This document shows positions 283 through 4,988 of a stretch of DNA of 8,441 nucleotides, piece after piece. The stretch comes from a virus. Location: the UHGV virus genome UHGV-0193111. One strand, given 5' to 3'. The notes below the pieces were generated by a model. The model did no database searches. It saw only the letters and a list, made by a program, of their open reading frames with translations, and had not been told where the DNA came from. Position 1 is the first letter of the stretch, and each line of letters begins with the position of its first letter. Made by a program: the position numbers and the translations under genes.

Positions 283-603
283 TCAGGCTTTTTCTAGCGT
301 ACACAGCAATGGATGCTCATTCTCCCTCGCGTACTTGTTCACCATCGCCACTTTGGTTTCTGCAACCTCGGCGGTAAAGACTCCGCAAATGGCCTTCCCC
401 TGGTAGTGAACAGCGAGCATCAATTGCGTTGCACGTTCTACATCATAAGAAAAGAATTTTTGTAACACGTCAATAACAAACTCCATCGGAGTGTAATCAT
501 CATTGACTAATATCACTTTATACATAGATGGCGGTTTTAGCGCGTCGCGAACTTTTTCTTCCGCCAGTTGATCAAAGTCCAGCCAGTCGTTCGTTTTACC
601 CAT
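283..603 (-). CDS. clpS: ATP-dependent Clp protease adaptor protein ClpS
   Basis: 106-aa ORF ([51 protein letters not shown]...) matches my recollection of E. coli ClpS over its full length. Correct size and position upstream of clpA. Confidence 0.95.
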
Positions 604-1430: not shown

Positions 1431-1712
1431 TTACCGCCGTAAGTGCTCCGGCTTCCTCCACTGGTAAGTATTTTTCGCGCTCTCCCTCCGTTGTTGAGAA
1501 CGGCGACGGTATGCCAGCAACTCAAGAACTCTGGTTCGTATGTTGCGCATATCCACGCCATTAAGTTCTATACCATCACGGCGCATCACCTCCGCAACAA
1601 CACGCGCATAATTTTCAGCGGTCACGCTGTCCGGCTGCATGGCCTGTTCGTCAACCTGCTGGCTGATTCCGGCAACGCGGCGGATTAATCCCAGTATTTC
1701 GGCTTCTGTCAT
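1431..1712 (-). CDS. Hypothetical protein, 93 aa, Arg-rich C-terminus (the ORF-track version extends to 1820 but would run across cosN)
   Basis: ORF-track ORF 1431..1820; I prefer the internal ATG at 1712 (MTEAEILGLIRRVAG...) because the longer form overlaps the cos site at 1768-1798. No family recognised. Confidence 0.35.
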   Translation of the reverse strand: MTEAEILGLIRRVAGISQQVDEQAMQPDSVTAENYARVVAEVMRRDGIELNGVDMRNIRTRVLELLAYRRRSQQRRESAKNTYQWRKPEHLRR

Positions 1713-1767
1713 TGTGCCCCCATCGTTCTGAAAGTCTGGTGTCGTCGGGTCCTTCCTGGAATTATGG

Positions 1768-1920
1768 CCCGTTACGGGGCGGCGACCTCGCGGTTTTTCG
1801 CTATTTATGAGCTTTTTCATGGGGGGGTGGTGGTTTTGTTGCTTGCTCTATCTCCATGAATAAAAAGGGAAAGATAACACCAACACACCAACCTGAAACC
1901 TTGACCAAGTTGGGATATTG
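1768..1920 (+). other. cos site 1: lambda-type cosN (cohesive-end sequence GGGCGGCGACCT at 1777-1788) plus a diverged cosB-like leader with tandem ACACCAAC repeat (1877-1892), directly upstream of terS
   Basis: 1768-1812 cccgttacggggcggcgacctcgcggtttttcgctatttatga is near-identical to the phage lambda left end and cosN junction as I recall it (GGGCGGCGACCTCGCGGGTTTTCGCTATTTATGA). Same position and orientation relative to the Nu1-like gene as in lambda. Confidence 0.8.
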
Positions 1921-2463
1921 ATGAAATCGCACCTGATGAACAAAAAAACCATGGCGCAAAGCTGCCGGGTAAGTGCTACAGCATTCGACAAGTGGGGAGT
2001 GACTCCCGTTGAACGTAAAGGCCGTGAGGCGTTTTATGATGTTGCCAGCGTGATAGACAATAGGGTTAACAATGCAATTAGCCAGCTTACAAACGACAAA
2101 GGCGAGATTGATGATGATGAACTCTTACGAGTCAGGATCAGATTACTGACAGCACAGGCGGAGGCGCAGGAACTTAAAAACGAGCGCGATCGCGGTGACG
2201 TGATTGATACAGAGTTTTGCATGTACGCGCTTTCAAAACTGGCGAGTCAGATTTCATCAATCATGGACAGCCTCCCGCTTACTATGCAAAGGAGCTTCCC
2301 ACACATTACCCCCGCTATGCTGGATGGGCTTAAAAGGGAAGTGGTTAAAGCCTGTAATGCCAGTGCCAGAGTTGCCGACAACCTCCCACAGATACTGGCT
2401 GATTACCTGAACGAAACAACCGGAAACGTACCGGAAAAGTTGCTACAGAAGAAAGGCGAGTAA
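1921..2463 (+). CDS. terS: Terminase small subunit, lambda Nu1-like
   Basis: Product aligns along most of its length with lambda Nu1 as I recall it (YDVASVI vs YDSAAVI; RLLTAQAEAQELKNERD vs RLTRAQADAQELKNARD; FCMYALSKLASQISSIMDSLPLTMQRSFP vs FCTFVLSRIAGEIASILDGLPLSVQRRFP; LKREVVKACN vs LKRDIIKAMN). ORF track starts at TTG 1918. First ATG is 1921; ATG 1936 (MNKK...) matches the Nu1 N-terminus MEVNKK best. Weak RBS for either. Confidence 0.85.
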   Translation: MKSHLMNKKTMAQSCRVSATAFDKWGVTPVERKGREAFYDVASVIDNRVNNAISQLTNDKGEIDDDELLRVRIRLLTAQAEAQELKNERDRGDVIDTEFCMYALSKLASQISSIMDSLPLTMQRSFPHITPAMLDGLKREVVKACNASARVADNLPQILADYLNETTGNVPEKLLQKKGE

Positions 2464-2686: not shown

Positions 2687-2710
2687 AAAAAAAAGCCGGA
2701 TTTCTCCGGC
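2687..2710 (-). terminator. Rho-independent terminator of the capsid operon (stem GCCGGA/TCCGGC, loop TTTC, followed on the minus-strand transcript by U8)
   Basis: Hairpin at 2695-2710 with A8 at 2687-2694 on the plus strand, immediately downstream of the 137-aa ORF stop (2717-2719). Confidence 0.6.
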
Positions 2711-2716
2711 CTTGTC

Positions 2717-3130
2717 TCAGATGGTTTTCAGTATGCGATCGATGTCGCCGTCATCGCCCTGGTTTCTGCCATCGTATGCCATGCCAGCTGATACGGCTTG
2801 CGGGCTGTGCATGTCCATAAAGTTTTCAAAGGCTGCGGTAAGCTCTGGTGCAACCTTTGGGCGCTCCTGCTCTATGGTCATGTTCAGGATTTCACGAGCA
2901 TTATCGACGCTAATACATGGCACGTTTGCCATTGCACGTAACAGCGGCTGATAGTCTTTATGCTCATGAAGCGCCATAATCGCATCAGCGCGCGGCTTGT
3001 CCTGCTCTTCCAGTTTGTTGAGTTGATATACGGCCTCGTAGGTTGATAAACCTCTGTCAGCCATTGCCCGCGCTTCTTCTTTAAATTTACTCGCCAGCGG
3101 TAGCGCCATGATGCTTTCATTCGTTGCCAT
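2717..3130 (-). CDS. Hypothetical protein, 137 aa, last gene of the capsid operon
   Basis: ORF with ATG at 3130 preceded by AGGGGGAA RBS, 12 bp after the decoration-protein stop; followed by a terminator. No family recognised; not obviously lambda FI or FII. Confidence 0.65.
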   Translation of the reverse strand: MATNESIMALPLASKFKEEARAMADRGLSTYEAVYQLNKLEEQDKPRADAIMALHEHKDYQPLLRAMANVPCISVDNAREILNMTIEQERPKVAPELTAAFENFMDMHSPQAVSAGMAYDGRNQGDDGDIDRILKTI

Positions 3131-3142
3131 CGTTCCCCCTGC

Positions 3143-3478
3143 TTATCGGGCCAGCGGCTGAACGGATACGCCGGAACCCGCAAAGGCGGCGCATTTTTTC
3201 GCATCGGTGTCGACGCTCTCAGGCCAGTTAACGGCGGCAATATTGAATATCCCCGTCTTGTAACACTGTGCTGATTTCTGCTTTGACGTGTCCACAGGAT
3301 ACGAAGTCAGATAAACAGCCTTGCCAGATTCCTGACCATCCCACGGCTTAAACTCGCCATTGTCCGCCAGCATCAGCGGGGTAAATTCCTGAATAACGCC
3401 AGCATCAGCGGCAAAATGTACCAGCGTCGTTGATACCTGCTGACTGCCTGCAAATAACTCAATGTATGGAGTGTTCAT
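3143..3478 (-). CDS. Head decoration protein, lambda gpD-like
   Basis: Product shares blocks with lambda gpD as I recall it (TPLML, WDG, YK-G-F, WPE, KK-AFAG, S-S-V) and has similar length (111 aa from ATG 3478; ORF track uses GTG 3487, 114 aa). Stop of the capsid gene lies 2 nt upstream of the GTG. Confidence 0.8.
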   Translation of the reverse strand: MNTPYIELFAGSQQVSTTLVHFAADAGVIQEFTPLMLADNGEFKPWDGQESGKAVYLTSYPVDTSKQKSAQCYKTGIFNIAAVNWPESVDTDAKKCAAFAGSGVSVQPLAR

Positions 3479-3489
3479 AGAATCCACCG

Positions 3490-4545
3490 TTAACCAATTT
3501 TGACGGTAACAAATTTGCGAATATCTGCCGGAACAGGCTGCGGTGCGCTGTGTGTCTGCACGTACTCAATCGCCGGATCGCCGTCTTCAATCCAGTTTTT
3601 CGGGTAAAACATGTTTTGCGTTGCGCCCGTTCTTACCGCTTCCTGTTCCATAATCGCACCATAGGCCACCAGCCCTTTATTGTTGGTGTTGCCCAGGACC
3701 AGCAAATCAGGCTCAAGGAAATATTTTTCTGTGCCGTCGCTGTCAGTGTATTTGCCGGAATAGACGATAAGGGCCAGATCACCAAGATAGCCTTTAAAGC
3801 TCACCACTTCTCCCAGGTTTTTACATGCCAGCTCTGCGGCGGATTCTGAACCACGGGAGAGATCGTACAGTTCACGGAATTTTTTAAAGCTGCGTAACAT
3901 GCGCCATACATCAACGCCCATAATCATGACGTTTGCGGGGCAACCTGCCTGATCTGCGTATAGCTCAATGTCATAGATTGGGTCGTGTATGTCTTTGTCC
4001 TGCTCTGACCATTTTTTACCGTCGGCCTGCTCTATGATGTTTTTTTCCGGTATCTTCCAGTCGATTTCATAGCGTTCTATGCCTTCGCCCTCAATGATGT
4101 TTTTTCCGGTCGTTATCGCATTCACCGCCATCCATTCCACGCGCGCTTTAATGGCGTTTATCTGGCGGCGCATGTTGCCAGTAATCAGGCGCATACGGCG
4201 GTAGGTAGGGTCGTTAAGCTGTGCCGGATCTTCTCCAGCCATGCGCATTATTGTTTTTAATGGATCGATTTCGTGTTTTGGCTTCATGTAGCCAGGGCGA
4301 ATAATGCTGGTTTCGTACCCTTTATCGCGCTGAACCTGGCTACCAACCATAGGCGAACAAAACGCCGACATAGTGACTTCTTCAATATCCAGGTTATCTA
4401 ACATGATGTCCTGTGTGTTGAATGTCGCCACGTTCGGGAAAAACAGCGCGGTAAACAGCGGACTGAATTTAAATTCCGCAATATCCTCGCGATTCAGGTA
4501 CGCGAAAAGCTGGTTAGTGTTAAGTGCCATTGCTTTGACTGCCAT
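3490..4545 (-). CDS. Major capsid protein, lambda gpE family
   Basis: 351-aa product shares many conserved blocks with lambda gpE as I recall it (FKF-PLF; PGY-KPKHE; DP-YRR-R; WS-RDK--DP-YDIE-YA; RSFK; GYLGD-A-VYSG-Y; LGNT--GL--YG-I; YPKNW--GDPA). ATG at 4545-4543 with GGGGGTGA RBS; start overlaps the stop of the upstream ORF (TAATG). Confidence 0.9.
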   Translation of the reverse strand: MAVKAMALNTNQLFAYLNREDIAEFKFSPLFTALFFPNVATFNTQDIMLDNLDIEEVTMSAFCSPMVGSQVQRDKGYETSIIRPGYMKPKHEIDPLKTIMRMAGEDPAQLNDPTYRRMRLITGNMRRQINAIKARVEWMAVNAITTGKNIIEGEGIERYEIDWKIPEKNIIEQADGKKWSEQDKDIHDPIYDIELYADQAGCPANVMIMGVDVWRMLRSFKKFRELYDLSRGSESAAELACKNLGEVVSFKGYLGDLALIVYSGKYTDSDGTEKYFLEPDLLVLGNTNNKGLVAYGAIMEQEAVRTGATQNMFYPKNWIEDGDPAIEYVQTHSAPQPVPADIRKFVTVKIG

Positions 4546-4751
4546 TATTCACCCCCATAATTTTTATGCATCCCAAGCGCCGCAAGTAAATAAGAGCGTA
4601 CAAGTGAACCTATCGACGGCTCCGGCGTCATCAGCGGATCCAGTCCAGCCGCCACGCCAGCCTCATAGTTTTTTTTGTGGCGCTGCTTGAGCACCTCCAC
4701 GATTTCGGGGCTTATGTACACCGAAACACCGCCTTTTTTCTCTTCTGCCAT
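4545..4751 (-). CDS. Hypothetical small protein, 68 aa, translationally coupled to the major capsid gene
   Basis: ATG at 4751 with AGAGGA RBS; stop overlaps the capsid gene start. First gene of the operon downstream of a palindromic promoter region. No family recognised (does not resemble lambda gpW despite equal length). Confidence 0.6.
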   Translation of the reverse strand: MAEEKKGGVSVYISPEIVEVLKQRHKKNYEAGVAAGLDPLMTPEPSIGSLVRSYLLAALGMHKNYGGE

Positions 4752-4779
4752 AGTCAGAAATTCCTCTTTGACTTAAAAA

Positions 4780-4818
4780 ATCACAACTGGATGTTCATCC
4801 AGTTATGATTATAATCAT
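4780..4818 (-). promoter_or_regulatory. Candidate promoter/operator of the capsid operon: inverted repeat AACTGGATG-n2-CATCCAGTT (4780-4799) and 14-bp perfect palindrome ATGATTATAATCAT (4805-4818) containing a consensus TATAAT
   Basis: Read directly from the sequence, 30-70 bp upstream of the 68-aa ORF start. No convincing -35 found, so promoter assignment is tentative. Confidence 0.4.
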
Positions 4819-4912
4819 GATTGCATTTTGCGCAATAAAATTGAGTTGTGTTGCAAATTATGAAATGATTTACAGCAACAGTAGTCACCATGCTGTTAAC
4901 CTCGTAAGCAAA

Positions 4913-4952
4913 AGCCCGATAAGCTTCCTCCTGTACTTATCGGGCTTTTTTT
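4913..4952 (+). terminator. Strong hairpin terminator (11-bp perfect stem AGCCCGATAAG/CTTATCGGGCT, then T7 on the plus strand); may also act on minus-strand transcripts (U4 on that side)
   Basis: Read directly from the sequence. No annotated plus-strand gene ends here, so it may insulate the two operons or terminate a small plus-strand RNA. Confidence 0.5.
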
Positions 4953-4958
4953 GGGTAC

Positions 4959-4980
4959 AAAAAGCCGGATTTTCTCCGGC
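4959..4980 (-). terminator. Rho-independent terminator after ssb (stem GCCGGA/TCCGGC, loop TTTTC, U5 on minus-strand transcript)
   Basis: Hairpin 4964-4980 with A5 at 4959-4963 on the plus strand, 9 bp downstream of the ssb stop; near-identical to the terminator at 2687-2710. Confidence 0.55.
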
Positions 4981-4988
4981 CTGTGCGT

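Follow-up and report, generated by a model that had tools for sequence, protein, structure and literature searches.

UHGV virus genome UHGV-0193111 (8,441 nucleotides (nt); the whole stretch is referred to here as the window) carries a capsid cassette of four co-directional open reading frames (ORFs) on the minus strand, from position 4751 to 2717, which in order of transcription encode a 68-amino acid (aa) protein, a lambda gpE-like capsid protein, a lambda gpD-like decoration protein, and a 137-aa protein. The same four genes occur in the phage-inducible chromosomal island (PICI) EcCICFT073, the model PICI of Gram-negative hosts. Because the published papers name c1499 as the capsid gene and c1500 as the decoration gene (PMC6092414), and because c1498-c1501 was handled as one replaceable block (PMC10530653), we took the 68-aa gene, termed orf68, as the homologue of c1498 and the 137-aa gene as that of c1501. 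The cassette genes are as follows:

4751..4545, minus strand: orf68 (c1498 homologue), 68 aa; AAGAGGA precedes the ATG by about 11 nt
4545..3490, minus strand: capsid gene (c1499 homologue), 351 aa, PF03864
3143..3478, minus strand: decoration gene (c1500 homologue), PF02924, with the start taken as ATG 3478 (111 aa)
3130..2717, minus strand: 137-aa ORF (c1501 homologue), with a Nu3-type scaffolding match

The capsid ATG shares the A of the orf68 TAA stop codon, which creates a TAATG overlap, and the stop codon of the decoration gene is separated from the 137-aa ORF by a gap of 12 nt (GCAGGGGGAACG) that contains a GGGGGA ribosome-binding site. The ORF tool placed the start of the decoration gene at GTG 3487 (114 aa); ATG 3478 has a GGTGG Shine-Dalgarno sequence and is also the RefSeq start in relatives. 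The gene order, the gene limits, the overlap, and the gap with its ribosome-binding site had all been given in a preliminary description of this DNA, and each agreed with the ORF table and the sequence. Since these ORFs have strong homologies, they are not chance ORFs. No Rfam RNA family was found in the window, and no tRNA genes were found there either.

Products of the capsid cassette

The 351-aa protein matched the Pfam family PF03864 (Phage_cap_E; E = 3.5e-50) over profile positions 14-328 of 329. A 328-aa alignment with lambda gpE showed 43% identity (E = 6e-92), and the protein is a gpE-type major capsid protein. The product of the decoration gene matched PF02924 (HDPD; E = 5.5e-18) and phrog_49 (E = 7e-28) and showed 36% identity to lambda gpD (E = 2e-13), and it is a head decoration protein of the gpD type. 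Among 50,697 phage records, no capsid protein was more than 48% identical to that of the cassette. NCBIfam gave no match for any cassette protein, and Pfam gave none for the 68-aa and 137-aa proteins.

The 137-aa protein belongs to phrog_1999, a family of unknown function. A second match was to phrog_53 (head maturation protease; E = 1.1e-10) and covered positions 494-567 of the 583-position profile; in lambda gpC, this C-terminal stretch is produced separately as well, as the scaffold Nu3. A direct BLASTP comparison with lambda gpC/Nu3 gave nothing significant; thus, the link required profiles and bridging sequences. A word-indexed homologue search returned close E. coli copies only, and an exhaustive HMMER search gave nine matches, two of which were repeat-containing Nu3-like proteins. 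The bridging protein P0066 (195 aa) matched the 137-aa protein over 114 residues (BLASTP, E = 7e-11) and lambda Nu3 as well (E = 2e-16). When the profile of the 137-aa family was aligned by hhalign with lambda Nu3 and its bridging homologues, residues 5-118 were paired with Nu3 residues 50-188 at 96.7% probability (E = 3.3e-10); against single lambda head proteins, only Nu3/C rose above background (E = 0.013), and W, FI, FII, Nu1, D, and E stayed at noise level. In the phage records, tblastn matched two places only: the C-terminal end of the "gpC homolog" of Gifsy-1 (E = 3e-3) and a site in phage 204576 that lies just upstream of D and E.

The sequence motifs of the 137-aa protein pointed in the same direction. 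It contains two copies of the Nu3 repeat IMxL...P.(M/I)(T/S)...A..(I/L)L, an F-x-x-F-M-x-x-H-S-P motif, and, at its C-terminus, an invariant IDRILKTI tail that is the counterpart of VNDLLNTPV in lambda. The AlphaFold2 (AF2) model was all helical and of low confidence (predicted local distance difference test, pLDDT, 62; predicted template modeling score, pTM, 0.40), too poor for a fold search, and a PDB sequence search gave noise only, with no solved relative. The protein is encoded by a separate gene without a protease domain, downstream of E and D, and is not nested in a protease gene. On the basis of the C-terminal phrog_53 match, the P0066 bridge, the hhalign alignment, and the repeats, we concluded that the 137-aa protein is in all likelihood a free-standing Nu3-type scaffolding protein.

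These results divided the claims that had been made about the two small proteins. The statement that neither resembles Nu3 held for the 68-aa protein, which matched no lambda head protein, but not for the 137-aa protein; that neither resembles W, FI, or FII stood for both (hhalign E values of 0.14-0.63, which is noise). Their proposed candidacy as scaffolds was strengthened for the 137-aa protein by its Nu3-type homology, whereas the 68-aa protein, on weak evidence, looks more like a ribbon-helix-helix DNA binder than a structural factor. In NCBI/nr, many members of the 137-aa family carry the name "phage head-tail connector protein"; no profile or comparison supported this name, which looks like a propagated misannotation of a probable Nu3-type scaffold. 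Among the papers searched, we found none linking PICIs with Nu3, and thus both the scaffold assignment and the view of the cassette as a complete shell set may be new at the annotation level.

In lambda, the gene order is C/Nu3, D, E, and the cassette order E-D-Nu3 is its mirror. We compared coordinates in the 25 phage records that were listed by both the capsid and the decoration searches (lambda-like phages, phage 21, phi80, N15, Gifsy-1, the PhiR12 series, and others), and D lay upstream of E in every one. Thus, the E-then-D order, which the preliminary description had noted as an inversion relative to lambda, is both real and unusual. Separately, three records of about 20 kilobases (ON470596.1, ON470627.1, and ON470604.1; Escherichia phage vB_EcoM-...), deposited as phages, were found to contain E and D homologues (about 43% identical) in the phage order D-E, and their size suggests that they are satellites or partial genomes.

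Conservation and island context

The order orf68-E-D-Nu3-like was found in nine loci and was kept in every related locus examined (E. coli L001-L003 and L007-L009, the metagenomic contig L005, and the Salmonella island L006). In the Salmonella island, the capsid protein was 67% identical, and D was followed by a 79-aa protein with a Nu3-like tail (MMGEPAPAPV...INNLLLSVP). The median ratios of nonsynonymous to synonymous substitution rates (dN/dS; Nei-Gojobori) were 0.12 for the capsid gene, 0.12 for the decoration gene, 0.25 for orf68, and 0.28 for the scaffold gene, and no stop codons were present in any copy of a cassette gene at these loci; all four genes are thus under purifying selection. 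Divergence was faster, and of an allele-class kind, in orf68 and in the scaffold gene, with scaffolds only 41-42% identical beside capsids 83% identical. Given that the capsid protein is at most 48% identical to those of phages and that selection on the genes is purifying, we concluded that the cassette is an old, selected resident of satellites and not a recent capture.

Chromosomal clpS (283-603, minus strand) occupies the left end of the window, and the remainder is the right-hand part of a PICI, with genes for DUF4222, a DUF927 primase, ssb, the cassette, and a small terminase subunit (TerS) next to clpS. The island of E. coli SCU-172, which is 96.5% identical over 87% of the window, lies between clpS and yljB/cspD and encodes, in the order of transcription, an integrase, an AlpA-like helix-turn-helix regulator, an Icd-like protein, DUF4222, the DUF927 primase, ssb, and the cassette. 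The window, which is also syntenic with CFT073, thus covers the right part of a Gram-negative PICI of the EcCICFT073 type, with clpS and cspD on either side of the island, in agreement with the satellite context supposed in the preliminary description. The 2035-nt cassette was present at an identity of at least 90% in 598 of 5426 complete E. coli genomes (about 11%), including O157:H7, Nissle, and CFT073, and the module was intact in 592 of these 598. A gene for a PerC-family regulator is located between ssb and orf68 in the CFT073, SCU-172, and O157 islands, with two further small ORFs before orf68 in O157; the window lacks the PerC-family gene and has only an intergenic region of 237 nt (4752-4988) between ssb and orf68.

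Other features of these islands were also observed. The Nu1-like TerS gene of the window (1918-2463, plus strand) lies in a 786-nt segment between 77-nt inverted repeats that are 81% complementary (arms at 1746-1822 and 2609-2685), and this segment is flipped relative to the O157 island. The inverted TerS junction was found in full in 5 of the 5426 complete E. coli genomes versus 480 for the co-directional junction; thus, the inversion is real but rare. A 129-aa ORF (1431-1820, minus strand; phrog_1561, function unknown, E = 1e-53) is kept by all relatives at the end of the island. Its first approximately 25 codons fall within the left arm of the inverted repeat, and the right arm contains a diverged version of the same coding stretch. 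In E. coli CFIAFB20180511, a divergent island copy (L007; NZ_CM143727.1, 4642660-4658207), of which the capsid protein is 84% and the scaffold (115 aa) 42% identical, is located directly beside P2-like baseplate and tail genes, and this satellite may be embedded in or abut a myovirus prophage.

Probable control signals and the 68-aa protein

The cassette is one transcription unit with terminator-like hairpins at both ends. The features that accompany it are as follows:

4752..4830, minus strand: conserved upstream control region, from an alignment of six islands and the upstream sequences of nine loci, including Salmonella
4779..4810, minus strand: leader hairpin with a 14-base pair stem, a 4-nt loop, and then U6, a terminator-like site directly upstream of orf68
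2692..2713, minus strand: intrinsic-terminator-like hairpin closing the cassette, GGCCGGAGAAATCCGGC then T8, fold -20.6 kcal/mol
4955..4982, minus strand: terminator-like hairpin just after ssb, part of direct repeat D4, with a weak fold (z = -1.4)

Conservation of the 80 nt ahead of orf68 extends from E. coli to Salmonella. This control region contains an invariant TATAAT, a weak -35 element (TTGCGC/TTGCAC) 16 nt upstream of it, and an ATTGC-N7-GCAAT palindrome over the -35 element. A consensus scan did not call a promoter at 4752..4830 because the -35 element matches at 3 of 6 positions only; the promoter function of this region is inferred. The leader hairpin, which is present in E. coli islands and in the Salmonella island, folded as RNA at -21.9 kcal/mol (z = -3.9), with none of 200 shuffles equally stable. 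Two readings of this hairpin are possible, a terminator/attenuator or an operator palindrome. The hairpin after ssb separates the replication genes from the capsid cassette. Together with the closing hairpin, it forms a pair of direct repeats (2685-2712 and 4955-4982; 79% identical; GGCCGGAGAAA(A)TCCGGC and then a T run), and such repeated hairpins on either side could favor loss or replacement of the cassette as a unit.

We also addressed the nature of orf68 as a candidate regulator of this unit. Its product falls into phrog_3255 (E = 8.5e-46), a family of unknown function, and had no match in the 50,697 phage records; its relatives were all unnamed Enterobacterales proteins from E. coli, Salmonella, Pluralibacter, and Edwardsiella. 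No relation to lambda head proteins was detected by BLASTP against gpW, which gave nothing, or by hhalign, which gave noise, and a gpW-like identity was rejected; gpW has the same length, 68 aa. Its sequence passes from a conserved strand-like GGV[ST]VYISP into a first helix, which a turn with the conserved pattern GLDPL...PS.G links to another helix. In the AF2 monomer (pLDDT 73), an extended N-terminus is followed by helices 15-34 and 47-58 with an unusually long loop between them. Sub-threshold profile matches were obtained to BrnA_antitoxin (E = 0.017; 4 of 13 members) and RHH_1 (E = 0.15; 3 of 13); Foldseek of the model against the PDB gave no match with E < 1, and a PDB sequence search returned noise. 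Our best guess, a weakly supported one, is that orf68 encodes a small regulator of the ribbon-helix-helix type. When orf68 alleles were compared with the upstream palindrome for co-variation, the putative DNA-reading strand, GGV[ST]VYISP, was identical in all of the alleles, including those at loci without the leader hairpin. A database protein, P0061, was found to be a PerC-orf68 fusion.

An alternative, which we regard as possible but doubtful, is that the orf68 product is not a DNA-binding regulator but assists assembly and is synthesized together with the capsid protein; it could, for instance, act as a chaperone of the island's gpE-like protein or keep that protein from aggregating. The TAATG coupling to the capsid gene is kept in all E. 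coli alleles, the family occurs only beside these capsid genes, and no DNA-binding domain was matched significantly, all of which would fit such a cofactor; however, the strand with two helices and the weak BrnA and RHH_1 matches fit a ribbon-helix-helix fold, and in Salmonella orf68 and the capsid gene are 5 nt apart. In addition, orf68 occurs in two allele classes about 68% identical beside capsids 92-98% identical (the window versus L001, L002, L003, and L009), which argues against tight co-adaptation. This divergence beside near-identical capsids points to mosaic recombination within the cassette.

Possible roles of the cassette

The cassette encodes a shell-forming set, consisting of a gpE-like capsid protein, a gpD-like cement protein, and a free-standing Nu3-type scaffold, and the island also encodes a Nu1-like TerS; no portal, protease, large terminase, or head-completion genes were found among the window ORFs. 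With about even confidence, we proposed as the most likely role that the cassette is the satellite's private supply of shell subunits, with a function that may be conditional. The cassette would be switched on when a lambdoid helper enters late development, and the satellite scaffold would drive its own capsid protein to assemble on the helper portal; helper protease and terminase, steered by the Nu1-like TerS of the island or by Rpp, would then process and fill the shell, which the satellite's own D would stabilize. The result would be a private and mutually co-adapted supply of high-copy shell parts, redundant with lambda or phi80 in the laboratory and useful when the helper capsid protein is limiting, interrupted (as in helper-embedded islands), or incompatible. 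In this scheme, orf68 would regulate the operon. The proposal draws on the identities of E and D, the Nu3 homology of the 137-aa protein, the island context, the conserved gene order, the purifying selection, the mostly intact module in E. coli genomes, the divergence of the capsid protein from those of phages, the bounding hairpins with the conserved upstream region, and the published frequency of capsid genes in PICIs.

Several results weigh against this proposal. Deletion of c1499 or c1500 in EcCICFT073 left both transfer and lambda interference unchanged, and the DNA packaged from EcCICFT073 lysates with lambda was all phage-sized (PMC6092414); an island with cas9 in place of c1498-c1501 was still transferred by phi80 delta-cos (PMC10530653). 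No assembly role of the cassette has been observed to date. On the side of regulation, the leader hairpin is absent in L005 and L007, and the ribbon-helix-helix assignment of orf68 comes from sub-threshold matches, with nothing from Foldseek. The published tests used lambda and phi80 as helpers and addressed mostly single genes.

A further, tentative possibility, less probable than the private supply itself, is that the cassette represents a minimal "shell-only" capsid-forming system halfway between classical PICIs and capsid-forming PICIs (cf-PICIs). When its natural lambdoid helper is present, shells consisting wholly of the island's E, D, and Nu3-type proteins would assemble on a stolen portal, possibly with a smaller triangulation (T) number fitting one or two island genomes, and orf68 would time expression; the null phenotype with lambda and phi80 would then reflect non-cognate helpers.

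Capsid-size redirection or helper interference, in which small shells (e.g., T = 4) that exclude the helper genome would arise because the island capsid protein and scaffold either join helper proteins during assembly or displace them, is improbable. The satellite has its own scaffold and its own capsid protein, as a size-determining set would need, and there are precedents: the SaPIbov5 capsid homologue makes small capsids (PMC6092414), small capsids are also produced by PmCI172, which has a capsid gene (PMC6893505), and, according to Katsura 1983, cited in the latter paper, one mutation in lambda gpE can be enough to produce small heads. However, all lambda-packaged EcCICFT073 DNA was phage-sized, the deletions of c1499 and c1500 did not relieve interference, and when genes downstream of ori were expressed singly, only c1503 (RppA) blocked lambda (PMC6739421). 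The suggestion in the preliminary description that the small proteins determine capsid size or interfere with the helper therefore runs against these results and the cas9 replacement, obtained with lambda and phi80; neither activity is supported with these helpers.

It is quite improbable that the cassette consists of passenger genes, that is, a helper late-gene cluster captured into a dynamic "late zone" and without present function for the satellite. Such capture of helper late genes by PICI late zones was proposed by Mageeney et al. (PMC10111431), and the published deletions without phenotype would agree with it; however, dN/dS values of 0.12-0.28 with no disrupted copies at the nine loci, a capsid protein at most 48% identical to any in the phage records, the absence of orf68 from phages, an E-D order found in 0 of 25 phages, and the conservation of that order from E. 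coli to Salmonella all speak against it. From the selection, the divergence, the absence of orf68 from phages, and the conserved order, a long residence in satellites under selection is indicated, and recently captured helper genes were rejected on the capsid divergence, the dN/dS values, and the orf68 absence. Least probable by far is that the small proteins are ordinary head-completion or joining proteins, a connector (137 aa) and a gpW-like adaptor (orf68), as the NCBI/nr name and the 68-aa length of gpW would have it, since there is no Pfam or NCBIfam connector match, hhalign of both families against W, FI, and FII stayed at noise (E values of 0.14-0.63), BLASTP of orf68 against gpW gave nothing, and the 137-aa family links to Nu3/gpC C-termini instead.

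Comparison with known systems

The cassette is the already-known late-zone capsid module of EcCICFT073-type PICIs and not a new kind of system. The c1498-c1501 module of EcCICFT073 (Fillol-Salom et al. 2018 ISME J; Ibarra-Chavez et al. 2020) has the same four genes in the same order, with 92% nucleotide identity over 2035 nt, and the two islands share an architecture of int, alpA, pri, DUF4222, ssb, the cassette, and a packaging gene. They differ in that EcCICFT073 is next to phoQ, whereas the window island is between clpS and cspD; the window island has the DUF927 primase, lacks the PerC-family gene upstream of the cassette, and carries the inverted Nu1-like TerS where CFT073 has RppA; and its orf68 is of the other allele class, 68% identical to that of CFT073. 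Of 29 reference PICIs from Gram-negative bacteria, 21 carry a capsid gene (PMC10111431), and "capsid morphogenesis" is listed among the PICI core components (PMC10085698). Capsid genes are the commonest phage late genes in these PICIs, yet the only experiments on this module found no phenotype. A complete, co-evolving shell set that is under purifying selection turns a "stray capsid gene" into a testable hypothesis and sharpens the question of why these genes are kept; the scaffold assignment also corrects the "head-tail connector" database name that has spread through many records.

Like the window island, the cf-PICIs (e.g., EcCIEDL933; Alqurainy et al.) encode their own major capsid protein and accessory head proteins. 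However, cf-PICIs also encode a portal, a protease, a head-tail adaptor/connector, and the large terminase subunit (TerL), and make complete small capsids; genes for these proteins were found neither among the window ORFs nor in the complete related islands. The missing portal, protease, TerL, and connectors rule out a cf-PICI, and PICI capsid genes fall into a clade apart from that of the cf-PICIs (PMC10085698). Ccm of SaPIbov5 is likewise a capsid homologue on a cos-packaged satellite, but Ccm makes small capsids and blocks the helper, neither of which was seen for the EcCICFT073 homologues. To our knowledge, Ccm is without accompanying decoration or scaffold genes.

Compared with the head genes of lambda, the cassette lacks the portal, protease, large terminase subunit, W, FI, and FII, and has an extra leading 68-aa gene. 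Lambda Nu3 is nested in frame in the protease gene and has one repeat, whereas the cassette Nu3 is a separate gene with two repeats, and the lambda order Nu3-D-E is opposed to E-D-Nu3 in the cassette; the mirrored order, the free-standing Nu3, and the extra orf68 rule out a phage head operon. Nevertheless, the capsid protein (43%), the decoration protein (36%), and the scaffold domain are homologous to those of lambda C/Nu3, D, and E, and together they make up a complete shell-forming set.

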